From positions 5,638-69,637 of the forward strand of contig JBFXEX010000002.1 of assembly GCA_050179645.1 (NCBI GenBank): a stretch of DNA of 64,000 bases. Reading direction: 5' to 3'. Positions 12,032 through 54,630 of the stretch are shown in pieces; the stretch's first letter is position 1; every line of letters begins with the position of its first letter. The notes under the pieces were generated by a model, which was not told the origin of the DNA, ran no database searches, and saw only the letters and a program-made list of their open reading frames with translations. The translations under genes and the position numbers were made by a program. The DNA is from Xanthobacteraceae bacterium (GTDB lineage: Bacteria; Pseudomonadota; Alphaproteobacteria; Rhizobiales; Xanthobacteraceae).

Positions 12032-13276
12032 TCAGAGCGAATTTCGCGAGAAATCGTAGGCGCCGGGATGGCGGACCACGACCGAGCGGGCATCCTCCGG
12101 CTTGTGCGCGCCGAGCTGCCCGAACGCGGACTTCATCTCGTCCATCAACAGGTCGATGACGTGACCCGGCCCTTCGGCACCGAGCGCCCCGAGGCTCCAC
12201 AGAAAGGCCTTGCCGGCAAACGCAAGGTCGGCGCCGAGCGCGACCGCCCGCGCCACGTCGAGTCCCGAGCGGATGCCGGAATCCATCATCACGGCGGCCC
12301 GGCCGCGCACCGCACCGGCGATCGCCGGCAGCACGTCGATGGCCGCAGGTAATCCCTCGACCTGCCGGCCGCCGTGGTTCGAGACCACGATGCCGTCGAC
12401 GCCCAGCGCCACGGCCTTCTCGGCGTCCGCCGGATGCATGATGCCTTTCACCACCAGCGGGCGCTTCCAGCGTTCCCGGTAACGCGCGACCTCGTCCCAG
12501 GTGAACGCGCCGCCCATTTCACGACGGACAAACGCCGCGACCTCGTTCACGTCGGCGTCGTTCTTGGTGTAGGGCTTGAGATTGCCGAAGCGCGGCTGGC
12601 CGTTCTGCATCAGTGACCTGAGATAGCCCGGCGAGGTGAGGATGCCGGCCAACATCCGCAGATCCGGCTTGAACGGCGTCGTGATCCCGGCCGCCACCTC
12701 GCGCGAGCGCGTGGTGCGAACCGGCACGTCGAGCGTGAGCACCAGTACTTTGACGCCGGCAGCATCGGCGCGCTTGACCAGATCGAAGCCGATCGCGTGT
12801 TCGTTGCGGGAGCAGCGATAAAGTTGAAACCAGAGCACGTCGGGCGCGATTTCGGCGGCCTGCTCGACCGTCATGCCGCCAACCAGCCCGAGTGTATAGG
12901 GCACGTTGGCGCGCTGCGCGGCCGCAGCGAGATACCGGTCGGCGCCCGGAAACACCAGCGACGGGCCCCCCATCGGAGCCACGCCGAACGGCGCGGCATA
13001 ACGATGGCCGAACAATTCGATGTCGACGGGCGGCAACCCTGTCGTGACGCCGTAACGCGGCACCAGTTCGACCGCATTAAGTGCATCCCAGTTGCGCGCG
13101 ATGCCGCCATCGGCCCCTGCCCCGCCATCGCAATATTCGAAGGCAAATTTGGGCAGCGTGCGGCGCGCCTTCTCGCGCAGATACGCGACCGTCGGAAAGC
13201 GGCGCTGCCGCGCGACAAACTGCGTGCTGCTGTTGCTCGATCCCTCCGGACGGCGCAACGCGGTCGTGTCTTGCAT
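12032..13276 (-). CDS. FMN-dependent alpha-hydroxy acid dehydrogenase (L-lactate dehydrogenase-like)
   Basis: 414 aa with FMN_dh hallmarks: VVSNHGGRQ, PLVVKGI and a DSGIRSGLDVARA-type C-terminal segment. Confidence 0.85.
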   Translation of the reverse strand: MQDTTALRRPEGSSNSSTQFVARQRRFPTVAYLREKARRTLPKFAFEYCDGGAGADGGIARNWDALNAVELVPRYGVTTGLPPVDIELFGHRYAAPFGVAPMGGPSLVFPGADRYLAAAAQRANVPYTLGLVGGMTVEQAAEIAPDVLWFQLYRCSRNEHAIGFDLVKRADAAGVKVLVLTLDVPVRTTRSREVAAGITTPFKPDLRMLAGILTSPGYLRSLMQNGQPRFGNLKPYTKNDADVNEVAAFVRREMGGAFTWDEVARYRERWKRPLVVKGIMHPADAEKAVALGVDGIVVSNHGGRQVEGLPAAIDVLPAIAGAVRGRAAVMMDSGIRSGLDVARAVALGADLAFAGKAFLWSLGALGAEGPGHVIDLLMDEMKSAFGQLGAHKPEDARSVVVRHPGAYDFSRNSL

Positions 13277-22685: not shown

Positions 22686-22778
22686 TCGGCTCAAGATGGC
22701 GCGACTCAGTCGCCCGAATGACGCGGTACGCTCCAATTCGGCGTGCCGTGCGACAACCGTCAGCAAAGGAAACATCGC

Positions 22779-24320
22779 ATGGCGAAACCCGACAAACCGA
22801 ACATCCTCGTCATCTGGGGAGACGATATCGGCATCTCGAACCTGAGCTGCTATTCGCACGGCCTGATGGGCTACAAGACGCCGAACATCGATCGCCTCGC
22901 CAAGGAAGGGATGATGTTCATCGATTCCTACGGCGAGCAGTCTTGCACCGCCGGCCGGTCGTCGTTCATCACCGGCCAGAGCGTGCTGCGTACCGGTCTC
23001 TCCAAGGTCGGGATGCCGGCCGCACCGATTGGCATGAACGAGAAGATCATCACCATCGCGGCGGCGCTGAAGAACCAGGGCTACGCCACCGGGCAGTTCG
23101 GCAAGAACCACCTCGGCGATCTTAACCACATGCTGCCGACCAACCACGGCTTCGACGAATTCTACGGCAACCTCTATCACCTCAACGCCGAAGAAGAGCC
23201 GGAGATGTACGACTATCCGCCGGAGAAAGACTTTCCGAACTTCCGCAAGATGTTCGGACCGCGCGGCGTGATCCACTCCTGGGCGACCGATAAGGACGAT
23301 CCCACCGACGAGCCACGCTGGGGCAAGGTCGGCAAGCAGAAAGTCGAGGATACCGGCCCGCTCACTCGCAAGCGCATGGAGACCTGCGACGACGATTTCG
23401 TCGCGCACGCCAAGCGATTCATGAAAGAGCAGAACGACGCCGGCAAGCCGTTCTTCGTGTGGCTCAACACCACCCACATGCATTTTATAACGCATACGAA
23501 GAAGGAAAGTCTCGGCCAGGCCGGCCGCTGGCAGTCACCCTATCACGACACCATGATCGACCACGACAAGAACGTCGGCGACGTGCTCGACTTTCTCGAC
23601 GAAATGGGCCTGACCGACAATACCTTCGTAATGTATTCGACCGACAACGGCCCGCACCGGAACAGTTGGCCGGACGGCGGCATGACGCCGTTCCGCAGCG
23701 AAAAGAACACCAACTGGGAAGGCGCGTTCCGCGTTCCGATGCTCGTGCGCTGGCCGGGCAAGATCGCCGCCGGCGCGGTGTCGACCGAAATCGTCCAGCA
23801 CCACGACTGGTTCCCGACCTTCCTCGCCATGGCCGGCGATCCGGACGTGGTCGATAAGCTCAAGAAAGGCTACCAGGCGATCGGACGCACCTACAAGAAC
23901 CACATCGACGGCTACAACTTGCTGCCTTACCTGACCGGCCAGGAGAAGGAGAGCCCCCGCAAGCTGTTCGTCTATATCAGCGACGACGGCGACATCCTCG
24001 CGTTGCGCTACGACCACTGGAAGGTCGTGTTTATGGAGCAGCGCTGCAAAGGCACCCTTGAGGTCTGGGCCGAGCCGTTCACCCGGCTGAGAATACCCAA
24101 GCTCTACAATCTAAGGACCGATCCGTATGAGTTCGCGGACATCACGTCGAATACTTACTGGGAGTGGTTCATCGAGCACGACTACATCATCTTCGCGATC
24201 AACTACATCTTCACCCAGTTTGCTGCGACGTTCAAAGAGTTTCCGCCAATTCAAAAACCCAACAGTTTCACGATCAGCGACGCGATCGGCAAAATGCAGG
24301 AAGCGCACGGCGGCGGCTAA
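22779..24320 (+). CDS. arylsulfatase (Cys-type, no signal peptide)
   Basis: Starts MAKPDKPNILVIWGDDIG. FGly motif SCTAGRSSFITGQ (C-x-A-x-R), plus GKNHLGD and STDNGP. Paralogous to the preceding gene. Confidence 0.92.
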   Translation: MAKPDKPNILVIWGDDIGISNLSCYSHGLMGYKTPNIDRLAKEGMMFIDSYGEQSCTAGRSSFITGQSVLRTGLSKVGMPAAPIGMNEKIITIAAALKNQGYATGQFGKNHLGDLNHMLPTNHGFDEFYGNLYHLNAEEEPEMYDYPPEKDFPNFRKMFGPRGVIHSWATDKDDPTDEPRWGKVGKQKVEDTGPLTRKRMETCDDDFVAHAKRFMKEQNDAGKPFFVWLNTTHMHFITHTKKESLGQAGRWQSPYHDTMIDHDKNVGDVLDFLDEMGLTDNTFVMYSTDNGPHRNSWPDGGMTPFRSEKNTNWEGAFRVPMLVRWPGKIAAGAVSTEIVQHHDWFPTFLAMAGDPDVVDKLKKGYQAIGRTYKNHIDGYNLLPYLTGQEKESPRKLFVYISDDGDILALRYDHWKVVFMEQRCKGTLEVWAEPFTRLRIPKLYNLRTDPYEFADITSNTYWEWFIEHDYIIFAINYIFTQFAATFKEFPPIQKPNSFTISDAIGKMQEAHGGG

Positions 24321-24330
24321 AGCATATTCT

Positions 24331-24353
24331 GGGCGGCGGGGTACCCGCCGCCC
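24331..24353 (+). terminator. GC-rich hairpin after the second sulfatase gene (possible terminator or attenuator)
   Basis: GGGCGGCGGG / CCCGCCGCCC perfect 10-bp arms, 11 nt after the stop codon. No U-tract, so its function is uncertain. Confidence 0.3.
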
Positions 24354-24398
24354 GCTCTCGCAGAATCGCGACCTTCCAAATTCGGATAGGATCACGCG

Positions 24399-24758
24399 AT
24401 GAAAGAATGGCTTGTTTTCGCCGCAGAGCAGTCTGTCATCGTTATCGATGCGATGGCCTTGATCATCGTTTTTGTCGGCACGGTCGAGGCCTTCATCTCC
24501 GGCCTGCGCGTGATGTTTTCCTCACCATCCGGACACGAGCGGCGTGACGTGTGGCTCCGCCATGCACGTTGGCTAATTGCCGGACTGACGTTCTTGCTTG
24601 CCGCCGACATCATCGAAACCGCGATTACACCAGACTGGGAAGACATCGGCCGCATTGCGGCGATCGCCGCAATCCGGACGGCATTGAATTGCTTTCTGGA
24701 ACGTGACTTGGACGAAGTTCGGGAACGGCAGCGCCAACCTGCCGAGACTCGCGCTTAG
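24399..24758 (+). CDS. DUF1622-like membrane protein
   Basis: 119 aa. The pattern VIDAMALIIVFVGTVEAF...LLAADIIETAI matches my recollection of DUF1622. Confidence 0.6.
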   Translation: MKEWLVFAAEQSVIVIDAMALIIVFVGTVEAFISGLRVMFSSPSGHERRDVWLRHARWLIAGLTFLLAADIIETAITPDWEDIGRIAAIAAIRTALNCFLERDLDEVRERQRQPAETRA

Positions 24759-28558: not shown

Positions 28559-29965
28559 ATGACCAAAACCACATTCGACGTCCGCGCAATCCTCGCCGGC
28601 GAGGCGCCCGCCGACACCCCCGTCACCGTCAAGGGCTGGGTGCGCACCCGGCGCGACTCCAAGGCCGGAATCTCGTTCGTCCATCTCTCGGACGGCTCGT
28701 GCTTCCATCCGGTGCAGGTGGTGGCGCCCAACACGCTGCCGAACTACACCGACGAAATCCTCAAGCTCACCGCGGGCTGCGCCATCGCGGCGACCGGCAC
28801 CATCGTGCCCTCGCCCGCCAAAGGCCAGCCGTTCGAGATGCAGGCCACGAGCATCGAGGTAATCGGCTGGGTCGACGACCCCGACACCTATCCGATCTCG
28901 CCCAAGCACCACACCATGGAATATCTGCGCGAGGTCGCGCACCTGCGACCGCGCACCAACGTCATCGGTGCGGCGACGCGCGTGCGCCACACGCTGGCGA
29001 AGGCGATCCACCGCTACTTCGACGACAACGGATTCCTCTGGGTCAACACCCCGATCATCACCTCGTCGGACGCCGAGGGCGCGGGCGCCCTCTTTCGCGT
29101 CTCGGCGCTCGACTTCGCCAACCTGCCGCGCACGCGCGACGGCAAGGTGGACTTCGCGCAAGACTTCTTCGGCCGCGAGTCGTTCCTCACGGTGTCGGGC
29201 CAGCTCAACGTCGAGGCCTACTGCCTCGCGCTCAGCAAGGTCTACACCTTCGGCCCGACTTTTCGTGCTGAGAATTCCAATACCAGCCGGCACCTCGCCG
29301 AGTTCTGGATGATCGAGCCGGAGATCGCGTTCGCCGATCTGTCCGACGACGCCACCTTGGCCGAGGGCCTGCTCAAGTCGGTGTTCGCGACGCTGCTCAA
29401 GGAGCGCGCCGAAGATCTCGCATTCTTCGACGAGCGGGTCGAGAAAGGCCTCGTCGCCAAGCTCGAAGGCATCGCCTCATCCGAGTTCGTGCGCATGGAC
29501 TACGGCGAGGCGATCAAGGTTTTGGAGAGCGCGAAGCAGAAATTCGAATTTCCGGTGAAGTGGGGCATCGACCTGCAATCCGAGCACGAGCGCTATCTCA
29601 CCGAGACGCACGCCAAGAAGCCCGTGATCGTGATGAACTACCCCAAGGACATCAAGGCTTTCTACATGCGCGTCAACGACGACGGCAAAACCGTCGCGGC
29701 GATGGACGTGCTGGCGCCGGGCATCGGCGAGATCATCGGCGGCAGTCAACGCGAGGAACGCCTCGATGTGCTCGACGCGCGCATGGACGAGCACCAGATC
29801 GACAAGGAGCACTACGGTTGGTACCGCGACCTGCGCCGCTACGGCACCGTGCCGCACGCGGGATTTGGCTTAGGCTTCGAGCGCACGCTCGCCTATGTGA
29901 CGGGACTGGCCAACGTGCGGGATGCGATTCCGTTTCCGCGGGTGCCGGGGAACGCGAGGTATTGA
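28559..29965 (+). CDS. asnS: asparagine--tRNA ligase
   Basis: 468 aa with an N-terminal OB fold ([26 protein letters not shown]), class II motifs ([21 protein letters not shown]) and motif 3 ([15 protein letters not shown]). Confidence 0.93.
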
Positions 29966-30008
29966 GAACGGCCTATCGGGCCTACTTCACTGGTTTGTGT
30001 GCAGTCAC

Positions 30009-32474
30009 TCATCGCCAAGTAGCTTCATCCCGAGGATTGATTCCGTAGTCTTGGAGCAAGGCGGCAGCTTCCTCGACACGGCCTAGGCGATGAAGTGCCT
30101 CGGCGACATTCATAGCGTCACTCTTGGTTGCTCTGTGCGTTGGTCCCAGCACTTCTTTAGAGATAGCGAGCGCTGTTTTACCGATGGCGAGTGCGTCACT
30201 CGGCTGTCCAGCCGCGAGCATTAACCGCGCAATCTGATAACGAGCGACATTCGTGTTGGGGTGCTTCGGGCCCAAGACCTTCTCGTAGATGGCCAGCGCA
30301 CCCTCCAGAAGAGACCGTGACTCCGCGAATTTGCCCAGATCCTTGAAAAGACAGCCCAGATTATGCATCGTTTGCGCTGTATGATGATGGTATTCACCCC
30401 ATATGGCCTGTTGAATTGCGAGAGCGCGTTGGTAGTGCACCTCTGCCTCAGAAAGCTCGCCCTGCATGTGCAACTGATAGCCAAAATTGTTTAAGCTCAT
30501 CGCTGTGTCCGGATGATCCGGGCCGAGCGCGTCTAGACGGATGTCCAATGCTCGTTTCATCATTGGCCGTGCAGCTGCAAAATCGTCTTGCCGCTGCGCC
30601 AAGTAACCAAGATTGGTCAGAGCCGTAGCAGTGCTCTCGTGCTTAGGACCGCTGACGGTCTCCTCTATCGCTAAAGAACGTTCCAAAAGTTGGCGAGCTT
30701 CGGAAAATTCGCCTTTCTTGGAGAGCAGATGACCAAGATTGCCGAGAGCGATCGTGGTCTCAGCATGCGCGGGACCGATATGCTCCCAGATGGATAATGA
30801 ATCTCGCATCAGCGGTTCGGCTTCGGCGTAGGAGCCACACCCGAGGAGATACCCTGCGGCCAGCTTGAGAAGTTTCGGCCAATGTACGGCATTCAAAGCT
30901 CGGGGCCCGTTGGCTTCCCGAAGTGCCATGACATGCGATGTGAGCTGTGCGCAGAGCGTCCACTCACTGGAATCATCAAAGCGCGTCTTCGGGTAAATTG
31001 TTGCGAGGCGCGTGATGAGACGCTCTACGGCGTCATTCGCTGTACCTCTTTCCTCCGATCGTTCTCGCGCAACGGCTTGAACAATCCGATGCACTGTCAC
31101 CGCTGGCGTGCCATCGGGAAACGGGTCATGCTTGATAAGAGATATCTCGGCAAGCGCCGCGAGGGCTTGCGCCCGTTCCGCTTCATTATCGATTGCCCCC
31201 TCAACCAGAAAAACAGGGATGCGTTCCGGCGCGCAACAAGCGAGATAGTCCATCAGTTGCTTCGAAGTTGCGCATTGCTCTGTGGCCTGGCTGATGGCAA
31301 GTTCAAACGTCGCCGCAACACTAATTGGGTAGGTCACACCGCGCGGTACAGCAGCCATGAGACTCGACGACCTCGCCGCATAGTCAATGAAACTCATTTG
31401 CGTGCGTCTGCAATAGGCGGCAGCATGATCGAGCGCGAGTGGCAGACACCCCAATGTCTCCGCTAGCCTCCCTGCACCCGATGCCTCGTCGCGATCGGCG
31501 CGTATCTGAAGGAAGGCGACTGCCTCCTCGAGCGAGAGAACATCAAGTTGAAGCTCGTCCGCCCATTCCTTCCAGTCCGAGAACCTCGATGTGATGAGAA
31601 CTCGCGCCCCGGTGGATGGAAGAAGATCAGCAATTTCATTTGGAGTGGACACGTTATCATACACCAACAACCAAGTAGCACGTTGTTCAGCCAACTGTCG
31701 CAAGGCCGCTTTGGCGTTTTGTTCCAAGTCAGCTTGATCTACTTTCTTGACGCCAAGCCTAACAGAAAGCGCCGCAAGGCTGCCCAGAAGCGTGGAGCGT
31801 GTCTCGGCAGGACACCAGCAGACCCCCGCATAAAGCTTGTGATACCGATACGCATATTCTGTCGCGAGCGATGTCTTGCCGACCCCGCCCAGACCCTGAA
31901 CAGCAACGCGCCCGACCGGCTGTGTTACCACAGCAGGCTTGTCGTGCATTAGGATCGCATCGAGCCTGTCGAGTTCTATATCGCGACCCAAGAACGTCGC
32001 GATGCGAGGCGGCACCCCGATGAACGGAAGAGGTGGCGGTTTCGATGCTTGCGAGCGACCTTCAACCGCCGCCATGATGCGGCTTTTTCGTACTTCCGGA
32101 TCATTAGTATCAAACAGATTCTGATAGACACTGTCGGCAAGTAATCCCTCCGGCGTAACATCCTCACAGCGTAGGATAGCGATGCGGCGCTCCTCCGGTT
32201 GGCGCAGTCTCTGGGCCTCAAAGCTACTGAATTCCTTCCGGGTGTAAGCAGATTGCTCATAATCACGTGTCAGCAAGATGATCAAGTCGCGCGAATTCTT
32301 GATACCCTGGTGCATCCGCTCGATCAGGTTCGCATTGAGCGGAATATCGTAGTCTTGGACGAATACCTTGTATCCCTTCGCGGCAAGCATGTCGGTGACC
32401 TCGCGAGCAACGGCAGCCACTGAGCCGCGACGACTCAGGAAGAAATCGTACCGTTCCTCGGAACTGGCAATCAT
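30009..32474 (-). CDS. TIR domain / NB-ARC-type STAND NTPase / TPR-repeat protein
   Basis: 821 aa. TIR pattern at aa 8-140 (YDFFLSRRGS, DLIILLTRDYEQSAYTRKEF). NB-ARC motif series: Walker A GLGGVGKTS (aa 194-202), Walker B WLLVYDNV, then RVLITSR and LGCLPLAL. Six or more KLC-type TPRs at aa ~520-810. The gene is clearly AT-richer than its neighbours. Confidence 0.9.
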   Translation of the reverse strand: MIASSEERYDFFLSRRGSVAAVAREVTDMLAAKGYKVFVQDYDIPLNANLIERMHQGIKNSRDLIILLTRDYEQSAYTRKEFSSFEAQRLRQPEERRIAILRCEDVTPEGLLADSVYQNLFDTNDPEVRKSRIMAAVEGRSQASKPPPLPFIGVPPRIATFLGRDIELDRLDAILMHDKPAVVTQPVGRVAVQGLGGVGKTSLATEYAYRYHKLYAGVCWCPAETRSTLLGSLAALSVRLGVKKVDQADLEQNAKAALRQLAEQRATWLLVYDNVSTPNEIADLLPSTGARVLITSRFSDWKEWADELQLDVLSLEEAVAFLQIRADRDEASGAGRLAETLGCLPLALDHAAAYCRRTQMSFIDYAARSSSLMAAVPRGVTYPISVAATFELAISQATEQCATSKQLMDYLACCAPERIPVFLVEGAIDNEAERAQALAALAEISLIKHDPFPDGTPAVTVHRIVQAVARERSEERGTANDAVERLITRLATIYPKTRFDDSSEWTLCAQLTSHVMALREANGPRALNAVHWPKLLKLAAGYLLGCGSYAEAEPLMRDSLSIWEHIGPAHAETTIALGNLGHLLSKKGEFSEARQLLERSLAIEETVSGPKHESTATALTNLGYLAQRQDDFAAARPMMKRALDIRLDALGPDHPDTAMSLNNFGYQLHMQGELSEAEVHYQRALAIQQAIWGEYHHHTAQTMHNLGCLFKDLGKFAESRSLLEGALAIYEKVLGPKHPNTNVARYQIARLMLAAGQPSDALAIGKTALAISKEVLGPTHRATKSDAMNVAEALHRLGRVEEAAALLQDYGINPRDEATWR

Positions 32475-32570
32475 GCGTCACAGGTATCGCGAGTTCCACT
32501 AAAGGGTCAAGAAAATGACTTTACGGCCTCTGGAGAAATTCGGGCATTGAGCGAATATCAAGTTGAGCGC

Positions 32571-32654
32571 GTAGGATGGGTTGAGCTCCTGCGAAACCCA
32601 TCGCTTTCCTATCCTCGCAAGGTGATGGGTTTCGCTGCGCTCAACCCATCCTAC
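32571..32654. repeat. REP-like palindromic element, copy 1
   Basis: Arms GTAGGATGGGTTGAGCTCCTGCGAAACCCATC (32571-32602) and GATGGGTTTCGCTGCGCTCAACCCATCCTAC (32624-32654) are inverted repeats of each other. Confidence 0.9.
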
Positions 32655-32904
32655 AATCCTGCCCTATCGCCGGCGGCCGGAGATCGGATCGAGGCGCGGC
32701 GGGGCGACCGCCTCGATCGCACGCCAGAATTTCTCGTTGCCCTTCCTGGTGATGCAGACCTTGATGCGGTGCGGCGGCGGCCCGTGCTCGCAGCGGTGCG
32801 AGAGTTCGCCCGCGATCATGCCGTCGCACCAGACATAGGCGTGGAGATAGTGCCGGTTGGCGCGATGCTGCAGCCCGCCGCTGATGTCGGACCAATGCCA
32901 GCGC

Positions 32905-32986
32905 GTAGGATGGGTTGAGCCCTTGCGAAACCCATCACTTCGCCGGCTTCGACCATTGATGGGTTTCGCTGCGCTCAACCCATCCT
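32905..32986. repeat. REP-like palindromic element, copy 2
   Basis: GTAGGATGGGTTGAGCCCTTGCGAAACCCATC (32905-32936) and GATGGGTTTCGCTGCGCTCAACCCATCCT (32958-32986). Near-identical to copy 1, which lies 334 bp away. Confidence 0.9.
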
Positions 32987-33091
32987 TACCAGATGTTTCA
33001 GCTCCTGCATCGATCGGCGGACGCCTGTCGCCGGCAAAATCTGCTATTCGTTTGCCACTATCCCGGTTCAGTTGGGGAATGCCCACCTCAC

Positions 33092-34012: not shown

Positions 34013-34396
34013 AGCCGGTTGCTGGTCTGCTGCCGGCGCGCGGCAAGGCTCGACTTCTACCGAGGCTGGACTAATTTCCGGATTTTTTATGCGCGCAAGC
34101 AGCGAGCGGCCCGGATGAACTGCCGCTCCACCCATCCTGCGGCGATGGGCTCCATTCACATCGCCGTGATCCTAGCCGAATGGCGGATTGACGAAGGAGA
34201 GCCGCCGGAAAACGAGCGCGCCGAGCCCGGCAATGGCCGGTTTTCCATGGGTTCTCGGGCGCGCCGCTCATGCGGGCTGCGCGCTCCGCGTCGGCAAAAT
34301 CGCCGGTGCTTCGTCGCCCGTCCCACTACGCGTCGTCATCTCGATCGGATATCATGCGTGGTGACGGATTGACTGAAAGACGGGCGACGACAAGCA

Positions 34397-44689: not shown

Positions 44690-47600
44690 CTACGTCAGAA
44701 ACGGCAGAACCATGAGAGCATCGGGCTCGATCCCGGCGCGCGCGCACACCTCCTGCGACTTCGCCAGGTAGATCTCGGCCCGCGCATGATCGCCGGCATC
44801 GAGATACAGGGTCGCGAGGCCATCGTAGCACGGGAACAGAAGTTGCGGCTCGCCGATCTGTTCGGCGAGACCGAGCGCTTCCTGGTAGGACGCCAGGGCC
44901 TGCGCATGATCGCCATGACATTGATGGATCTGCCCGAGCACGATCAGCGGCACCGCGAGATGGTCGAGCAATCCCAGCCGGCGATCGAGATCGGCCGCCA
45001 CCTGCGCCGCCTCCATTCCTTCCGCCTCGCAACGATCCGTCAACGCGCAATATGCCACGGCCAGGTTGGCGTAGAGCCGCGACTGGAAACCGAGATCGCC
45101 CACCTTCTTCGCGGTCTCGAGTCCGCGCAGGCACGTCTCGATGCTGCGGGGCGGATCGAGCGAACTGTAGAGTACGCCCAGGTTGGTGTAGCCGCGGCAG
45201 GCCGCCTGCAATAACTCCCGAGCTTCGGCGAGCGAGATGCTCCGTTCGATATGCGTGACCGCCTCGCCGAGACGGCCGGTCCGTGCCAGCGCCACGCCCA
45301 GGGTATTGTAAGCCTGCGCCCGCGTGACCGCGATATCCCGCGCCCGTTCGGTGTCGGCGACGTCGCCCCCTTCCCCCGCTTCGGCCAACGCGCGCTCAGC
45401 CCAGGCGATGGCGCCCGCATTGTCGCCGTCGCGAAAGGCGAGCCGTCCGATTTCCTGGAACAGCTGCGCCCGCTCGACGGCATGGCCGTTGTGGCCAAGG
45501 CGTTCGAGGCCCGCTTCGAAGCAGCCGCCGGCGCGCTTGCGGTCGCCGGCTTCCCAATGCAGTCCGCCGACCTTGCGATAGAGGCGCGCGGCGCCGGCGA
45601 AATCGGACGCCGCTTCGCATTCCTGGCGCACCGCTTCGTAGTGCGCGAGCGCCTCGTTCCGCCGCCCTGTAAGCGCAAAGAGATCGGCGAGCCGCTCCCG
45701 CGCCGCCTGCACCTGGTCGCGGCAATCCCTGCAATCGGCGAGTGTGCGCAGCGCCCGCTCGTAATGACGGATCGCATCCTCGTTGGCGTACACGGCCCGC
45801 GCCCAGTCGCCGCCCGCGATGAGGTAGCGCGCACCCTTGAGCTGGTCGGATGACAGGCTCCAATGGTGACCGAGCGCTTCGATGTCGCCCAGCCGTTGCG
45901 GATGCGGCCCGACGGCTCGTTCGAGTGCGCGACCGGCACGCTCGTGCAATTCGGTCCGTCGCGTAAGAAGAAGATTCTGGTAGACGGCTTCATGCACAAG
46001 GGCGTGGGTAAATTCATAGCGCCCGCACGCGCCGCCGTGATCGGGCCGCCGAAGGAGATCGGCCTCGACGAGGCGATCGAGACCCTGCGCGATGCCATCC
46101 GCGTGGGTTGCCACGCCACGCAGCAGCGCCTCGTCGAACGCGGCGCCCAGGACGGCCCCTTCCTGCAGAAGACGCCGGGTGTCCGCGGAAAGCCGGTCGA
46201 CGCGGGAGAGCAGCAAGCCGTGCAGCGTGGGAGGAATGTCCACGGCCTCGCAGGTCGTCGTACACGCCCAATGTTCGCCATCGCGTACCAGCACCCCCTT
46301 CCCCACCAGGCTGCGAATGATCTCCTCGACGAACAGCGGGTTGCCGCCGGCCTTGGTCGCCACGAAATCCTGGAGATGAGGCAGCATGTCGCCGGCCGCT
46401 GCGCCGAACAAGCTGCCGACCAGGGCCCGCGTCTGGTCGGGCGTGAGAGCAGTGAGCCGGATGATCGTCTGCGCGGCCTGCAGGACTTTCGGCGGAGCTG
46501 CGTCGGCGCGATGCGACAGCAGCAGCATCAGCGGCCGGTCGACCAGTTGATCGACGACATAGCGCAACAGCTCGATCGACGCGGCGTCGGCCCAATGCAA
46601 GTCCTCGATGACGATCAGCAAGGGAGAATGATGCAGCCGCCGTTCGAGCAGAGCGCGCGCGGCAAGCGCGATCTGCCGCCGAAGCTGCTCGGGCTCGACT
46701 TCGCGCAGCCGCGCCTCCTCCATGCCGAGCACGTAGCTCAGCAATGGGGCCATGGTCTCCGCCTCCCTGGCATCGGCCCCGAGCGTCCTGAGCCCGCTCT
46801 CGAGCTTTTGCCGCGCGACGTCGAGCGTATCCGTCGCCGCGACGTGATACGCCTCACGGAACAGCGCGCTGAAGACGCCGTAGGTCGGCTCGCCCAGTGA
46901 CGAACAGCTGATCCGGCGCAGCGTGATCCGGGAGAGGCTGCCGTCGGCATCGAGTCGCGCCAGGAATTCGGCGATCACCCGCGACTTGCCGACGCCCGCC
47001 TCGCCGACCAAGCTGACGACCTGCGCCCGGTGATCCATCTCGTCGAACAGCGCGCGCAGTTGCTCGAGTTCGTCGGCGCGGCCGATCAGCGGCGTCGCAA
47101 GCCCATGGGCCGAGAGCCCGCGCGCCGATCCGGGCTCGGCAAGCGCGCCGACGAGGCTGTGAACCACCACCGGCTCCGACTTGCCGCGCAACGCCAGCTC
47201 GCGGGGCGGATCGAAGGCGAAGCGATGCGACGTCAACGCATAGGTGGCGTCCGAGACCAAGACCGCGCCCGAGGCAGCAGCAAGCAGGCGGGCCGTGGTG
47301 TTGACGGTGTCGCCGGTGACCGCATAGGCGGCGCCCGCGGCGCTGCCGAGACTGCCGGCGACGACCGGGCCGGTGTGGACGCCGATGTGCAACGTGACCG
47401 GCTGGCCGAGGCGCTGCGCCCATTGCTCGCTCAGCACGGCGCTGCGGGCGAGCATGTCGAGCGCGGCGTGGAGCGCGCGCTCCGGATCGTCCTCGTGCGC
47501 AATCGGCGCGCCGAACACCGCCAGTACCGCATCGCCGACGAACTTCTCGACGAAGCCATCGTATCGCGCGATGGCCTGCGCCAGCGCCTCGAACAGCGCA

Positions 47601-47818
47601 TTCTGGAACGCGCGGACGTCCTCGGGATCGAGCCGTTCGGAGAGTGTGGTGAAACCGGTGACGTCGGCAAACAGCACGGTCACCTGCCGCCGGTCGGCAT
47701 CCGGCTCGGCGGCGATTGGCGCGGGCGCGGCCGCAGGCGCATCAGCCCGGCGCCGTCCACAGCGCGGGCAGAATGCGAAGTCCGGCGACAGCTCGAAACC
47801 ACAGCCGATGCATGCCAT
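44690..47818 (-). CDS. zinc-ribbon / class III adenylate-guanylate cyclase / AAA(STAND) ATPase / TPR protein
   Basis: 1042 aa. N-terminal CIGCG..x..CPRCG. Cyclase core with metal-binding Asp residues in VTVLFADVTGFT and FVGDAVLAVFGAP. Walker A VGEAGVGKSRV (aa 271-281). Walker B-like LLIVIEDLHWAD. C-terminal ~400 aa are TPR-like repeats. Confidence 0.9.
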   Translation of the reverse strand: MACIGCGFELSPDFAFCPRCGRRRADAPAAAPAPIAAEPDADRRQVTVLFADVTGFTTLSERLDPEDVRAFQNALFEALAQAIARYDGFVEKFVGDAVLAVFGAPIAHEDDPERALHAALDMLARSAVLSEQWAQRLGQPVTLHIGVHTGPVVAGSLGSAAGAAYAVTGDTVNTTARLLAAASGAVLVSDATYALTSHRFAFDPPRELALRGKSEPVVVHSLVGALAEPGSARGLSAHGLATPLIGRADELEQLRALFDEMDHRAQVVSLVGEAGVGKSRVIAEFLARLDADGSLSRITLRRISCSSLGEPTYGVFSALFREAYHVAATDTLDVARQKLESGLRTLGADAREAETMAPLLSYVLGMEEARLREVEPEQLRRQIALAARALLERRLHHSPLLIVIEDLHWADAASIELLRYVVDQLVDRPLMLLLSHRADAAPPKVLQAAQTIIRLTALTPDQTRALVGSLFGAAAGDMLPHLQDFVATKAGGNPLFVEEIIRSLVGKGVLVRDGEHWACTTTCEAVDIPPTLHGLLLSRVDRLSADTRRLLQEGAVLGAAFDEALLRGVATHADGIAQGLDRLVEADLLRRPDHGGACGRYEFTHALVHEAVYQNLLLTRRTELHERAGRALERAVGPHPQRLGDIEALGHHWSLSSDQLKGARYLIAGGDWARAVYANEDAIRHYERALRTLADCRDCRDQVQAARERLADLFALTGRRNEALAHYEAVRQECEAASDFAGAARLYRKVGGLHWEAGDRKRAGGCFEAGLERLGHNGHAVERAQLFQEIGRLAFRDGDNAGAIAWAERALAEAGEGGDVADTERARDIAVTRAQAYNTLGVALARTGRLGEAVTHIERSISLAEARELLQAACRGYTNLGVLYSSLDPPRSIETCLRGLETAKKVGDLGFQSRLYANLAVAYCALTDRCEAEGMEAAQVAADLDRRLGLLDHLAVPLIVLGQIHQCHGDHAQALASYQEALGLAEQIGEPQLLFPCYDGLATLYLDAGDHARAEIYLAKSQEVCARAGIEPDALMVLPFLT

Positions 47819-51540: not shown

Positions 51541-54540
51541 TCACTTGCGCACAACCGCGATCGGGAAGTCCGGCACGGTGTCGGGCTTGGTCATCACCGG
51601 GTGCTGGCGCCCGCCGGTCAACTGCTTGACCCGCTCGGCGACGAACACGTCGAGCATCGAGGCGGTGATCTTGCCGGTGTCGAGCAGATTGGCCTTGCCC
51701 TCGTGCAGTCCTTCGATCACCGCCTTGGTGAAGGCGCCGTTCTGCCAGTCGTCGCGCTCGAGCGACACTTCCTTGCCTTTCGACGAGGCGAACACCACGA
51801 CGCCGTTCTCCGCGGTGACGAAGTCGTTGATCACGCCGTCGATGTCGACGTTGCCGCGCCGCAATGCGGTATCCGCCATCGCCTGCCCGGCGTGGCAGGT
51901 ATCGAGGAAGAGCACGGCCTTGCCGGCGAGATTGCGCAGCGTGCGACGGATGTCGTCCTGCGGCACGCCGCGCACCCGCACACGTTCGGGCGTCGCGTTC
52001 GCCGGCAGGAACCAGTAGGCATTCTTCTCGTCGGTCCAGCCGTGACCGGCGAGGAACACGACGCCGACATCGCGGCTGGTGACCTCTTTCTCAAGCCATT
52101 CTAGCCCCTCGGCGATGGAGTCGCGCGTGACCTCTTGATCGCGGAGCAGCCGGACCGTGACGTCGCCGTACATCAATCCGCGCTGCGCCTCGAGGGCCTT
52201 GGCAAAATCGGTCGCATCCTTGGCGGCGTAGCGCAGCTCCCAGGCGCGCTCGTTGTGCTTGCTGACGCCGACCACCAGGGCGTAGAGCTTCGGCTTGAGC
52301 AATTGCTCGCCGGTGAGCTGGCGTCCGCCCCAGGTCAGCTTGATGCGCGACGGCTCGCTCGCCACGTCACCCGACCAGGCGATCAGCGAGACTTCGACAT
52401 CCTGCCGCGGCAGCTTCACCTTCACTTCATCGGACGGCGCGGCGATGGCGCCGCGCTCCTGCTGCAGGCGGCCGTCGATGAACACCTCGATCCGGTCGAC
52501 CTTCGTGCCGGACGGCGAGCGCAATTCGTAGCCGAGCGTGACTTCGTCGCCCGAGAAGCGCGTGCCTTCGACCGGGCTGGTGATCCGCAGCACCGGTGGC
52601 AGGGCACTGAGCAGGGGTTTGGTCTCCTGCTTGCGCTTGGCGGTTTCGTTGGCGCTCTTGACCGCCTCGTCCTCGTCCAGCGTCTGCAGCACCAGACGGA
52701 CGATGTCGGGCCGATTGAAGCGTTCGCGGAAGCGAGAGGCCGGGAAGAAGTCGGCCGATTGCTCCCAGCCGCGATTGATGTGCCAGCCGATCAGGCCTTC
52801 GCCGCCCGGCGAGGCCATGTAGTAGCCGGTCGGCGTCCACGCGACCCAGCGCTTGTCTTCCTTGTAGATGAACAGCGTCAGCAGGACCCGGCCATCGGAC
52901 CAGCGATGCCAGCGGATGGTGCCGTCGGCGTAGGCCACGGCCGCCAATTCGCCGTCGCGTGCCAGGTTGATGCCCCAGGCGGTGCCCGGCACGTCCATGC
53001 GCCAGCGCTGCTTGCCGTCGGCCTCGAACGAACGCAGCGACCAGTCGGCGCCGAGCAGGAAACCGCTCGCGTCGGGACGGATCGCCAGGCTGCGTGCTTC
53101 CTCCAGGGTGGCGAGTTGCAGCGGTTTGTCGTTCAGCGTCGGCTTGGTGTTGTGCAGCCAGTCGGCGATCTTCAGGGCGCTGACATTCGCCGGCATCAGG
53201 TCCGGCAGTTGCTCGGGCGCGTCCTGCAGCGTGCCGGCCGCCAGATCGAACACCACGGGCTCCGACGCGAAGGTCTCCAGCCCGAACCGCAGCCGCGTCC
53301 CGTCCGGCGAAATCATGAAGCTGCTGTCGCGCTTGCCGCGCATGTCCGGGATCGGCGGCAGACCGATCTTGGTCACCGTCCCGTCCAGCGGATCGATCCG
53401 GCCATAAACCGGCCCGTGCGCGACGTAATAGACCGAGTCGCCGCATGGCATCATGTGGAGGACGGTATTGTCCGCCACCATCACCTCATTCACCTGGCGG
53501 CCATTGGCATCCCAGATACGAACCGGATACTGCCATTCCCCGTCGACGAAGCGCTGATAGCGGCCGCCGCCCAGGACGTACTTGCCGTCCGACGTCCACG
53601 ACACCGCCAAGAGGTTCCCGCTCGCGATGTCGGAATTGTCGGCCACCGCGACGCGCTCGAGCGTCCTGGCGTCGAAAATCTCCACGGTACGCGCGTCGTC
53701 GTAGCCCACGGCAACGCGTTTGCCGGTCGGATCGACGGCCACCGAGTGCGGCCGCTGGCCGCCCGGGGTCTTCACCTTGTGGGTGCGCTTGAAGTTGCGG
53801 CTATAGTGGCGAAGGTAGCCATCATAGGCCACAGCGTAGAGCGTGTCGTCCGGACCGAAGGCGAGTCCCCGGCTGCGTTCGGCATAGTCGCGATCAGCCA
53901 GAAGTACCTTGCCGGTTTTGGCATCGATGATCCGCACGCCATTCTTGCCGTCAAGCGACGCCGCGAGCTTGCTGCCGTCCGAGGTGAATGCCAGATGGTG
54001 GATGACCTGGTCGGACACCGAGTAGCGTCGCAGCGCGCCGTCGGTCGCGCTGTCGAACAGGTAAGCGCCGTTCTCATTCTGCTTGTAGTAGGCGTCCCAG
54101 CCGCCGACGGCGATCCGCTTGCCATCAGGTGTTATTGCCGTTGCATAGATCTTGCCGAAGTCGCCATCGCCGAGTGGTGGCCGGAAGGTCCGGATCAGCT
54201 TGCCCTCCGGTAACGACCATGTGCGCACGGTCTTGTCTTCGCTGCCGGTCACCAAGGTCTTGCATTCCCGGTCGATCCCGAGCCGGTACATGACCGCGGT
54301 GTGCATGTTGGTTTCGATGCGCAGCACCGGTTCCTGGTTCGGACAGACCTTGACGGCCTCCACCAGCGCGGGTGTCGCCGCGCCGTCGACTGCCCCCTTG
54401 TAGCAGCCGGCGTCGCGCAAGCGTTGCTGCAGCGACCGGATCTCGTCCGGGCCGAGCGACGCAAGATCTCGAGCGGCCGCAGACTGCGCCGCCAAGCCAA
54501 TTGCCAGAAACATCGAGACGGCGAGTGCGCGGACGCTCAT
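51541..54540 (-). CDS. exported PG-binding / WD40 beta-propeller / caspase-fold (peptidase C14) protein
   Basis: Start at MSVRALAVSMFLAIGLAAQSAAA (signal peptide). PG_binding_1-like segment (IRSLQQRLRDAGCYKGAVDG). WD repeats (TGSEDKTVRTWSL and others). The C-terminal 249 aa are a caspase domain with His in VFLAGHG and Cys in LFLDTCHAGQ (Cys codon at 51895-51897). Confidence 0.88.
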   Translation of the reverse strand: MSVRALAVSMFLAIGLAAQSAAARDLASLGPDEIRSLQQRLRDAGCYKGAVDGAATPALVEAVKVCPNQEPVLRIETNMHTAVMYRLGIDRECKTLVTGSEDKTVRTWSLPEGKLIRTFRPPLGDGDFGKIYATAITPDGKRIAVGGWDAYYKQNENGAYLFDSATDGALRRYSVSDQVIHHLAFTSDGSKLAASLDGKNGVRIIDAKTGKVLLADRDYAERSRGLAFGPDDTLYAVAYDGYLRHYSRNFKRTHKVKTPGGQRPHSVAVDPTGKRVAVGYDDARTVEIFDARTLERVAVADNSDIASGNLLAVSWTSDGKYVLGGGRYQRFVDGEWQYPVRIWDANGRQVNEVMVADNTVLHMMPCGDSVYYVAHGPVYGRIDPLDGTVTKIGLPPIPDMRGKRDSSFMISPDGTRLRFGLETFASEPVVFDLAAGTLQDAPEQLPDLMPANVSALKIADWLHNTKPTLNDKPLQLATLEEARSLAIRPDASGFLLGADWSLRSFEADGKQRWRMDVPGTAWGINLARDGELAAVAYADGTIRWHRWSDGRVLLTLFIYKEDKRWVAWTPTGYYMASPGGEGLIGWHINRGWEQSADFFPASRFRERFNRPDIVRLVLQTLDEDEAVKSANETAKRKQETKPLLSALPPVLRITSPVEGTRFSGDEVTLGYELRSPSGTKVDRIEVFIDGRLQQERGAIAAPSDEVKVKLPRQDVEVSLIAWSGDVASEPSRIKLTWGGRQLTGEQLLKPKLYALVVGVSKHNERAWELRYAAKDATDFAKALEAQRGLMYGDVTVRLLRDQEVTRDSIAEGLEWLEKEVTSRDVGVVFLAGHGWTDEKNAYWFLPANATPERVRVRGVPQDDIRRTLRNLAGKAVLFLDTCHAGQAMADTALRRGNVDIDGVINDFVTAENGVVVFASSKGKEVSLERDDWQNGAFTKAVIEGLHEGKANLLDTGKITASMLDVFVAERVKQLTGGRQHPVMTKPDTVPDFPIAVVRK

Positions 54541-54630
54541 TCCGTACTCCAGGTGGACCACCTCAATCTGCACCAGAACCGATTTCGAGAAAAGGCGGCC
54601 TTGCGTCGCCGTGGTGGCGGCTCCGATTGA

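Follow-up and report, generated by a model that had tools for sequence, protein, structure and literature searches.

In this work we asked what kind of protein is encoded by a solitary gene of a soil Xanthobacteraceae bacterium, an alphaproteobacterium, in which a TIR domain, an NB-ARC switch and an array of TPR units are joined in one polypeptide. Could such a protein be an immune receptor that is complete in itself, or is it one part of a larger system? The gene lies in a stretch of DNA of 64,000 nucleotides, here called the 64-kb window. An initial annotation, made from the letters of this stretch, had read it as a fusion resembling plant NLRs and had assigned it to an established class of abortive-infection proteins.

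The gene and its surroundings

The features of the locus are as follows.

30009..32474, minus strand: TIR-NB-ARC-TPR STAND gene, a complete 821-aa ORF with an ATG start and its stop codon at 30009-30011
29966..30008, no strand: convergent spacer of 43 bp from the asnS stop to the stop of the TIR-STAND gene; the low-GC block begins here
32475..32565, minus strand: 5' leader and putative promoter region, AT-rich (47% GC)
32566..32652, no strand: REP-like nested palindrome, copy 1, 87 nt, adjoining the low-GC block
32900..32986, no strand: REP-like nested palindrome, copy 2, 87 nt, directly before the DLH gene

The ORF call agreed with the initial annotation on this frame and on its convergent position 43 bp from asnS, which ends at 29965; a small hairpin in the spacer was not significant. 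The 821 codons are uninterrupted and the frame matches the family consensus at both its N- and C-terminal ends. Within 10 kb on either side are asnS, glyA, nrdR, a DLH-family hydrolase gene and a beta-lactamase-family gene, which are surroundings of a housekeeping type, and this copy lies outside any defence island. The same protein, identical in sequence, occurs in two NCBI MAGs and two Logan runs, and the GenBank entry MGE0034159.1 is an exact match which carries the name 'FxSxx-COOH system tetratricopeptide repeat protein [Xanthobacteraceae bacterium]'.

The gene has a foreign composition and was acquired horizontally. Its GC content is 0.558, compared with 0.644 for the window, and the difference is larger at third codon positions, where a GC3 of 0.578 stands against 0.868 for glyA, 0.887 for asnS and 0.882 for the beta-lactamase-family gene. 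The AT-rich composition had been proposed earlier from hand counts, and these were accurate: we counted 200 G+C in the 360 nucleotides of 30061-30420 (199 had been reported), 41 of 60 in 29701-29760, and 24-27 in the lowest lines of 60 nucleotides. The departure is in fact stronger than had been claimed (GC3 0.578 vs about 0.87). The two REP hairpins that had been placed on the 5' side of the gene are also real; the copies are 84% identical, have the same orientation, and each forms a single long hairpin (dG -34 kcal/mol, z = -9.6). They are the only flanking repeats and both lie on one side of the gene. As had been noted for the surroundings of the gene, a tRNA, an integrase and a partner gene are lacking: no tRNA occurs anywhere in the 64-kb window, and the 10 kb on either side contain neither an integrase or transposase nor a partner gene. 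Thus the usual hallmarks of mobility, namely an integrase, a tRNA target and flanking direct repeats, were not found. The gene was present in all four records of this species. The nearest relatives of asnS (at most 86%) and of the DLH gene (at most 76%) are not syntenic, and no empty site was found among the relatives compared. For the islet that had been described, no boundaries, integrase or empty site were found, so the term refers to its foreign composition.

Domain architecture

Pfam, the profile match to Roq1 and the Foldseek comparison all agreed with the fusion of TIR, NB-ARC and TPR modules, and TIR_2 and NB-ARC each scored above their cut-offs. The N-terminal module comprises two features.

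32064..32450, minus strand: TIR domain, aa 9-137, with a flavodoxin-like beta-alpha fold (pLDDT about 80-90)
32232..32234, minus strand: codon of E81, the putative catalytic Glu, in the motif SAYTRKE, equivalent to WxxxE by alignment

The TIR pattern which had been recognized by eye gave 57.5 bits with Pfam TIR_2 over aa 11-124 (cut-off 28) and 30 bits with Pfam TIR (cut-off 21.3), and beta and alpha elements alternate in the secondary structure taken from the predicted models. The phmmer matches of this domain were TcpB/BtpA (4lzp, 4lqc) and AbTir (7uxr, 8g83), and it is nearest, by sequence, to these bacterial TIRs, unlike the TIRs of plant NLRs. The AbTir/TcpB type is part of a group of TIRs known to make cADPR isomers. 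E81, already proposed as the catalytic residue, aligned with the Glu of 'WPARE' in TcpB/BtpA and with that of 'WTEYE' in AbTir. It was invariant in 54 homologs and nearly invariant in a set of 65 sequences which includes one non-TIR cyclase variant, so that both the alignment and the invariance bear out the assignment. The Glu at the WxxxE position of TcpB/BtpA and AbTir is catalytic (PMC9806590). Judged by its sequence, the TIR of the 821-aa protein probably cuts NAD+ once triggered.

Is this TIR a Thoeris-like generator of a signal, which makes a cADPR isomer or a related nucleotide and so activates an effector encoded elsewhere? A TIR with a catalytic Glu is common to both, the nearest solved TIRs are from the group making such isomers, and there are weak profile matches to ThsB (17 bits, PADLOC) and ThcB4 (21 bits, with a family cut-off of 220). 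However, the TIR and effector genes of Thoeris (ThsB with a ThsA-type effector) are adjacent by definition, whereas the TIR of the 821-aa protein shares one polypeptide with its sensor and switch. Neither the 10 kb on either side nor the larger ORFs of the 64-kb window include a ThsA/SLOG/Macro-type or other known Thoeris effector, or another signalling effector. TIRs fused to STAND proteins, as in Avs, and those of stand-alone proteins are also treated as NAD+-depleting effectors (bioRxiv 10.64898/2025.12.03.692087), and we regard a Thoeris-like role as quite improbable.

The central module carries the ordered series of NB-ARC motifs.

30975..31913, minus strand: NOD module, aa 188-500, NB-ARC with helical and winged-helix ARC subdomains
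31869..31895, minus strand: Walker A (P-loop) GLGGVGKTS, aa 194-202, with K200; aligned with GMGGVGKT of Roq1
31650..31673, minus strand: Walker B WLLVYDNV, aa 268-275; aligned with LVVLDDV of Roq1
31584..31604, minus strand: RNBS-B (sensor-1) RVLITSR, aa 291-297, with R297; aligned with RIVITTR of Roq1
31431..31454, minus strand: GLPL-type LGCLPLAL, aa 341-348; aligned with GGLPLAL of Roq1
31083..31094, minus strand: VHRI at the MHD position, aa 461-464, with the invariant H462

The Pfam NB-ARC match (PF00931, aa 188-332) exceeded its cut-off by a small margin (26.2 bits, cut-off 23.5). Pfam also found AAA_16 and nSTAND5 in the protein, and a match to DUF7779 over aa 402-472 was below its cut-off. 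The initial annotation had given all of these motifs and their positions, together with E81, correctly, and its assignment of K200 as the P-loop lysine is supported by the invariance of G194, G196, G197, G199 and K200 in the 54 homologs (about 58% identity). D273, R297, the GLPL motif and H462 are likewise invariant in these homologs, and across the sets of 54-65 homologs all the quoted NOD motifs are invariant or nearly so. The second acidic position of Walker B is Asn (N274) in every family sequence compared, which may make the ATPase cycle atypical. Roq1 was the only solved structure found by the NOD profile, which it matched motif by motif (E = 3e-5), and this match supports the NB-ARC assignment despite the narrow Pfam margin. 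A model of TIR and NOD together (aa 1-520) had a pLDDT of 81; in the full-length model the confidence for the NOD was low, about 60. With the TIR and NOD model, Foldseek returned as its best match the core of the RPP1 tetramer (E = 3e-12, about 530-545 columns), followed by Apaf-1 (5e-12), CED-4 (3e-11) and NRC2 (2e-10), and also NRC3 and Dark. The likeness to plant NLRs that had been proposed is therefore seen with Roq1 in sequence and with RPP1 in fold. The NTPase belongs, by sequence and fold, to the NB-ARC/AP-ATPase clade of STAND proteins: the profile score is above threshold, the motifs follow in order and the fold is that of NBD-HD-WHD.

The C-terminal module is the sensor.

30012..30890, minus strand: seven 42-aa TPR units of the kinesin-light-chain (KLC) type, aa 529-821 (pLDDT above 90)

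At least six TPRs of this type had been claimed, and the count is seven helix-pair units of 42 aa, beginning at aa 529. Pfam TPR_12 gave 235 bits in 6 stretches and TPR_10 gave 177 bits, and the array matched KLC1 both in sequence (E = 2e-27) and in fold (E = 1e-10). The kinesin-light-chain TPR is a peptide-binding fold in which the peptide is held in a groove. The units of the array share a mean identity of 27% with one another. When 735 units from the homologs were stacked, entropy peaked at repeat positions 7, 10, 17, 20 and 39, and these variable positions fall on one face of helix A. The number of matched units per homolog ranges from 0 to 11.

Could the gene be a leftover of a past transfer, intact in appearance but silent or decaying? 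Its seven units are fewer than in most homologs, its repeats lie further from the family consensus, and no match to the sigma-70 consensus was found upstream of it. Nevertheless, the frame of 821 codons is unbroken and aligned with the family consensus at both termini, all the invariant functional residues are kept, and the identical sequence is present in two MAGs and in two independent sequencing runs. We consider loss of function very improbable.

A large family with exchangeable heads

The protein is a member of a very large family, which comprised 2,187 cluster representatives at E<=1e-30 and has already been described as TIR + AP-ATPase + TPR proteins (PMC7159879; also PMC9806590). The initial annotation had missed this family, covered by the NCBIfam equivalog NF040586 (FxSxx_TPR), and had spoken of an established class of abortive-infection proteins, although the immune role of the family is inferred; we found no experimental characterization of any member in the searchable literature. 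The protein shares the NOD-TPR chassis, the N-terminal TIR and the domain order with the proteins described by Aravind and colleagues (eLife 2020, PMC7159879). In actinobacteria, the TIR + AP-ATPase + TPR gene lies downstream of an FxSxx-type peptide-processing module which is coupled to vWA-MoxR-VMAP ternary systems (PMC7159879).

The GenBank name leaves out the TIR. Is the protein an orphaned or trans-acting part of an FxSxx-COOH / vWA-MoxR-VMAP conflict system, one which, as proposed for actinobacteria, senses a processed peptide set free by a peptidase encoded elsewhere and does not act autonomously? NF040586 matches it with 397.6 bits (cut-off 300) over aa 154-809 and also matches 54 of 54 homologs; the name, the position of the actinobacterial genes and the peptide-binding fold of KLC-type TPRs all point the same way. 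However, neither the 10 kb on either side nor the larger ORFs of the 64-kb window include a partner of such a system (MoxR, vWA, VMAP, zincin peptidase, radical-SAM protein or small precursor), and the gene came as a single, compositionally distinct block. The conserved FxSxx-type gene set was also absent from three of three homolog neighbourhoods, so that, in contrast to the actinobacterial systems, the context of the module is missing both here and at these loci. Our host is an alphaproteobacterium, a class in which NB-ARC/TPR proteins resembling NLRs are reported to be rare. Dependence on an FxSxx system appears unlikely to us.

Caspase-like, trypsin-like and other TIR heads occur on the same NOD-TPR chassis, and so do adenylate/guanylate cyclase (Guanylate_cyc) and SARP (Trans_reg_C+BTAD) heads, the latter two at 43-62% identity over the NOD. 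In the three homolog neighbourhoods that we examined we found a casposon-like Cas1+PolB arrangement with an AAA-TIR neighbour, an integrase with IS elements, and C14 peptidases. Perhaps the protein is a signalling STAND with no immune role, whose TIR responds to an endogenous or environmental cue by adjusting NAD+ or by producing a second messenger, derived from ADPR, for the regulation of physiology. Such a role would accord with the cyclase and SARP heads (the homolog P0085 carries a cyclase), with the position of the gene among housekeeping genes and with the interspersion of defence and non-defence STAND clades (PMC13581612). On the other hand, bacterial TIR heads whose catalytic Glu is intact are, in the literature, overwhelmingly tied to conflict systems; siblings bear caspase-like and trypsin-like peptidase heads, homologs lie in mobile or conflict contexts, and foreign composition with a patchy distribution is typical for accessory defence genes. 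We therefore think a non-immune signalling function unlikely.

Comparison with known defence systems and NLRs

Kinship with Avs, bNACHT and Thoeris had been implied, and it was not borne out: PADLOC matched no Avs or bNACHT model to the protein or its close homologs and no complete Thoeris model, ThsB reached 17 bits only and a ThsA-type neighbour is lacking. No Avs model of PADLOC-DB v2, a library of 2023 which does not contain the newer Avs6-24, matched the protein at E<=0.01 or its homologs P0009 and P0001 at E<=0.001. Pfam found no NACHT domain, and no PADLOC defence model covers this protein family. Solved Avs structures were absent from the sequence search (E<=1), and none was recognized among the best 50 fold matches. 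The general plan is nevertheless that of Avs (AVAST; Avs1-24, Gao 2022; Nature 2026, PMC13581612), in which one polypeptide begins with the effector, continues with a STAND NTPase and ends with a TPR-like sensor, and the expected logic of binding, oligomerization and effector activation would be shared. TIR is among the known effector heads of Avs (bioRxiv 10.64898/2025.12.03.692087; PMC13581612), and STAND-TPR sensors bind phage proteins and tetramerize (PMC13581612). The analysis of Avs sensors in PMC13581612 was, however, limited to those of at least 400 aa, and these envelop their targets, whereas the array described here is regular, with a 42-aa period, and about 290 aa in length.

The TIR-NB-ARC order is common to our protein and to the plant TIR-NLRs that form resistosomes (RPP1, Roq1, WRR4A), and Roq1 aligns with the ordered motifs from the P-loop through Walker B and RNBS-B to GLPL. 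The plant sensor, however, is an LRR with a post-LRR domain, and here it is a TPR array. We know of no downstream pathway of the EDS1 type in bacteria. The order TIR-NB-ARC-TPR is identical to that of the plant TNPs, and the similarity of bacterial proteins to TNPs is reported to concern the NB domain only (PMC9806590). Fungal NB-ARC-TPR NLRs (PLP-1, PNT1 and the Podospora protein of PDB 4y6c) also combine NB-ARC with 42-aa TPRs of the KLC type, and resemble the present family in their variable number of repeats, their variable surface positions and their exchangeable N-terminal death or signalling heads. In place of the TIR head found here, the fungal proteins carry patatin, HET, HeLo or amyloid motifs, and they act in allorecognition. 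Fungal arrays are also highly conserved internally, whereas the repeats of our protein are old and diverged (27% identity).

A proposed mechanism

We favour, as fairly probable, the reading that the protein is a self-contained NLR-like receptor of the AP-ATPase/NB-ARC clade, acquired horizontally, in which a ligand would bring about oligomerization, NAD+ cleavage by the TIR and growth arrest. Its observed basis is the architecture, the intact and conserved catalytic and switch residues, the structural kinship, the foreign composition and the absence of a local partner. By analogy with the family, the resting protein would be a monomer whose ADP is held by K200 of the P-loop, R297 of sensor-1 and His462 at the MHD position. 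The ligand would bind to the concave face of the seven-unit TPR array and, because homolog variation concentrates on one face of TPR helix A, it is most likely a protein or a peptide which arises in an attack by a phage or another mobile element. Binding would free the NOD for nucleotide exchange and oligomerization, as in Apaf-1, plant TIR-NLR resistosomes and Avs tetramers. The oligomer may then gather the TIR domains and complete the active sites around E81, leading to NAD+ cleavage. Since the vicinity of the gene encodes no effector that responds to cADPR, the likeliest consequence would be NAD+ depletion accompanied by growth arrest or by abortive infection, rather than signalling. The immune role is likely but not certain, because the same chassis also bears cyclase and SARP heads. 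The solitary copy might also need distant genes, as the actinobacterial family forms multi-gene vWA-MoxR/FxSxx systems (PMC7159879).

Could stand-alone TIR-NB-ARC proteins with KLC-type TPR arrays form a distinct branch of bacterial immunity, one whose TPR groove reads a short peptide motif, in contrast to the Avs sensors that envelop a folded phage protein, and which is the prokaryotic counterpart of the plant TNPs? We regard this as rather unlikely. No report of a TNP trigger was found in the literature that we examined; if the idea is true, the compact 821-aa version could be a tractable model for the class of ligand that TNP-type receptors recognize. The find is solid yet unsurprising, because the large bacterial family is already described, and it leaves current concepts unchallenged. 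It is a further clear case in which an NLR-like TIR sensor has spread laterally into Alphaproteobacteria, a group for which such architectures are reported to be rare. The public annotation as an FxSxx-COOH system TPR protein conceals a probable NADase effector of death or defence and names a system which is absent from the 64-kb window. Thousands of diverged proteins belong to the family, which has the domain order of the plant TNP receptors, and a short, single-gene member such as this one is a reasonable candidate for learning what receptors of this kind sense.

The TIR-STAND protein and its conserved residues

The gene under study is a single open reading frame:

30009..32474, minus strand: TIR-STAND ORF, 821 codons, ATG start

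Its stop codon lies 43 bp from that of the convergent asnS. The initial annotation had read the product as a fusion of TIR, NB-ARC and TPR modules, and a Pfam profile search bore this out: TIR_2 on aa 11-124 (57.5 bits vs 28), NB-ARC on aa 188-332, which passed narrowly (26.2 bits vs 23.5), and a strong repeat array (TPR_12, 235 bits; TPR_10, 177 bits). The motifs which it quoted were all found where it had placed them, and its hand counts of G+C were correct within one base. In an alignment of 54 homologs (about 58% mean identity), E81, the putative catalytic glutamate of the TIR domain, was invariant, as were G194, G196, G197, G199 and K200 of the P-loop, W268-L269-L270 and Y272-D273-N274 of Walker B, T295-S296-R297 of RNBS-B, the GLPL motif from L344 to L348 and H462 at the MHD position; the result was broadly repeated with 65 sequences. 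The Walker B motif (31650-31673, aa 268-275) is of the form hhhhDN and not hhhhDD/DE, N274 being present in 65/65 aligned family members. An invariant Asn at the second acidic position suggests an atypical or slow ATPase cycle, and the switch may be driven by nucleotide binding more than by hydrolysis. Identical copies of the protein, in unchanged surroundings, are present in two NCBI MAGs and two Logan sequencing runs. That the gene is a silent remnant is very improbable, given its intact frame, the retention of the invariant residues and the identity across these four records.

Seven regular TPR units of 42 residues each (aa 529-821, pLDDT >90) make up the sensor, which is closest to kinesin light chain, both by sequence (E = 2e-27) and by fold (E = 1e-10). 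When 735 units of 120 homologs were stacked in register, the scaffold positions were nearly fixed and the entropy exceeded 3 bits at positions 7, 10, 17, 20 and 39, the first four of which are spaced i, i+3/4 on helix A; the proteins of this set had between 0 and 11 matched units each. Such variation is the pattern which would be expected for a diversifying binding surface, a reading drawn from the stacked sequences and not from a selection test.

Relatives by sequence and fold

By sequence, the TIR domain most resembles TcpB/BtpA and AbTir, which are bacterial TIRs, and E81 shares an alignment column with their WxxxE glutamate. The profile of the nucleotide-binding module (NOD, aa 188-500) matched a single solved structure, that of the plant TIR-NLR Roq1, with which P-loop, Walker B, RNBS-B and GLPL align in the same order. 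A fold search with the full-length model was swamped by TPR matches and was repeated with aa 1-520 (predicted model, pLDDT 81, pTM 0.62). The best match was then the RPP1 resistosome core (E = 3e-12), in an alignment of about 530-545 columns spanning both TIR and NOD, followed by Apaf-1, CED-4, NRC2/3, Dark and WRR4A; a prokaryotic STAND-TPR protein (6mfv) and MalT ranked lower, and no Avs or bNACHT structures were recognised among the top 50 matches. The TM-scores were low (0.22-0.35), as expected where inter-domain angles differ. What we claim from the predicted model is a kinship of fold class between TIR+NOD and the RPP1/Apaf-1 group, not the same conformation.

This large family has been described before, and its architecture has long been known. 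Bacterial TIR-NB-TPR proteins (PMC9806590) and AP-ATPase-TIR fusions (PMC7159879) have been noted, a preprint by Dyrka reports NB-ARC/TPR NLR-like proteins to be common in Actinobacteria and Cyanobacteria but rare among Proteobacteria, and the 2026 STAND census (PMC13581612), with 589 STAND clades, gives names to Avs1-24 and covers the AP-ATPase clade as well. No experimental work on the TIR-NB-ARC-TPR family was found in the searchable literature. Our full-protein search gave 1,265 of 8,000 scored candidates at E<=1e-10, the top 120 having 50-64% identity, while TIR+NOD alone matched 30,759 cluster representatives (E<=1e-3), 2,187 of them with E<=1e-30. No match exceeded 64% identity despite the exact protein being on record, because a 56-aa fragment (P0272) stands for its cluster in the 90%-identity collection. 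What makes the case of interest is that the gene apparently reached an alphaproteobacterium by lateral transfer, that its public annotation misleads, and that this candidate receptor of a plant-TNP-like class is compact and encoded by a single gene.

The annotation deserves comment. GenBank labels the exact protein 'FxSxx-COOH system tetratricopeptide repeat protein [Xanthobacteraceae bacterium]', and NCBIfam NF040586 matches it on aa 154-809 (397.6 bits vs a cut-off of 300), as it does 54/54 homologs. In actinobacteria, a TIR + AP-ATPase + TPR gene lies downstream of an FxSxx-type peptide-processing module, which is coupled to vWA-MoxR-VMAP ternary systems (Kaur et al., PMC7159879). Could our protein be an orphan from an FxSxx/VMAP system whose genes are dispersed? 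By its sequence it belongs to the FxSxx TPR protein family, but the "system" itself is not seen in the window: FxSxx and vWA-MoxR-VMAP partner genes were absent within +/-10 kb and among the larger ORFs of the 64 kb, and we consider such an origin unlikely. The public name thus leaves out the TIR domain and implies a context which is missing from the window.

The NOD-TPR chassis (43-62% identity over NOD) also bears other N-terminal heads: adenylate/guanylate cyclase, trypsin-like peptidase, caspase-like C14 peptidase, SARP (Trans_reg_C + BTAD) and divergent TIRs. The siblings headed by cyclase and SARP, together with the housekeeping neighbourhood of the gene, speak for a signalling STAND protein with no immune role, which we regard as rather unlikely. 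Three homolog neighbourhoods were mobile or conflict-like, without any common partner gene. One holds an integrase, a PriCT domain protein and IS elements, and another C14 and S8 peptidases; in the third (L086, 1-7866 and 11360-12823), the homolog P0033 adjoins a casposon-like block of Cas1, family-B DNA polymerase and helicase and an SRAP gene, and a separate 487-aa AAA + TIR_2 gene follows. The initial annotation had proposed a PADLOC search, in which the TIR-STAND protein and its close homologs gave only weak TIR matches (ThsB, 17 bits; PDC-S66, 28 bits) and no whole-protein model.

Proposed mechanism

We propose, and largely infer, a mechanism in five steps modelled on Apaf-1, plant TIR-NLRs (PMC9806590) and Avs (PMC13581612). 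The protein would rest as an ADP-bound monomer in which K200, R297 and H462 hold the nucleotide. The concave face of the TPR array would bind the ligand, and nucleotide exchange and oligomerisation would follow. The TIR domains would then come together and E81-dependent NAD+ cleavage would start, and the depletion of NAD+ would result in growth arrest. All residues needed by this scheme are present and conserved in the protein, and both STAND-fused and stand-alone TIRs have been treated as NAD+-depleting effectors (bioRxiv 10.64898/2025.12.03.692087). Is it possible that the TIR is instead a Thoeris-like signal generator whose effector is encoded at a distance? No signalling effector gene was found nearby (+/-10 kb and the larger ORFs of the window), and we think this quite unlikely.

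Composition and acquisition of the locus

The TIR-STAND gene has a GC content of 0.558, in a window of 0.644, and lies in a low-GC block which begins in the asnS spacer, ends at about 32565 and includes a 47% GC leader. The initial annotation called it an islet, and the foreign composition was upheld (GC3 0.578 vs 0.87-0.89 in the well-called neighbours glyA, asnS and a beta-lactamase-family gene). Three homologous genes have a high GC3 in their own contigs (0.77-0.88), so the low value is particular to the window copy and is no family trait. It suggests that the gene was acquired fairly recently, from a donor of lower GC content. There are no tRNA genes in the whole 64-kb window and no integrase or transposase within +/-10 kb. 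When GTDB representative genomes were scanned with asnS as the anchor (best match 86%), 0 of the 12 closest loci had glyA, the DLH-family hydrolase gene or the TIR gene beside asnS, and an exact-protein look-up of asnS returned the same context as the window and no other. A DLH-anchored scan of metagenome contigs gave 70 loci (best 76%), none of which has asnS or the TIR gene as a neighbour. The nearest asnS (<=86%) and DLH (<=76%) relatives being non-syntenic, no empty site was obtained, and the term islet therefore rests on composition alone, for which the evidence is strong. A promoter/terminator scan and an Rfam scan of the locus gave nothing significant.

The best matches of asnS (28559-29965; 78-86%) were in MAGs labelled Alphaproteobacteria and Burkholderiales, without common synteny, and one fetched locus (L001) carries a second asnS-like fragment of 52 aa (81%) at 12395-12550, about 2.7 kb downstream of its asnS; in the lineage of the window, asnS may itself have been laterally transferred. 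A second GC dip (0.546, window 24000-24500) covers the 3' end of a sulfatase gene (22743-24320) and the sequence downstream.

Two nested palindromes of 87 nt, with 84% identity and a common orientation, are found 5' of the gene:

32566-32652: nested palindrome, first copy
32900-32986: nested palindrome, second copy

Each folds into one long hairpin (z = -9.6). As both lie on the 5' side, we rejected them as islet borders and take them for REP-like elements of the species. Among 160 loci fetched, the motif was confined to those of the window's species and is therefore uninformative on mobility. A degenerate third arm is seen at 34125-34140. The 247-bp segment bracketed by the palindromes has ORFs on both strands without a Pfam match; the small ORFs which lie between and across them, at 32547-32918 (+) and 32664-33086 (-), likewise without a match, are probably spurious and were rejected as partner genes.

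Other genes of the window

44690-47818, minus strand: second STAND protein, 1042 aa, adenylate/guanylate cyclase (aa 44-215) + AAA_16 + TPR
51541-54573, minus strand: 1010-aa protein, N-terminal WD40 beta-propeller and C-terminal caspase-like Peptidase_C14
55736-58225, minus strand: 829-aa patatin-like phospholipase + DUF3376 protein

The patatin-DUF3376 gene is host-like in composition and its product had no PADLOC match. The cyclase-STAND-TPR gene is also host-like (GC3 0.815), and its cyclase matches the PADLOC Pycsar PycC models with 80 bits; it was rejected as a paralog of the TIR-STAND gene, the two sharing weak TPR and P-loop similarity and nothing more. The WD40-C14 gene, host-like as well (GC3 0.864), matches PADLOC 'caspase' with 33 bits and has an architecture of the conflict-system type.
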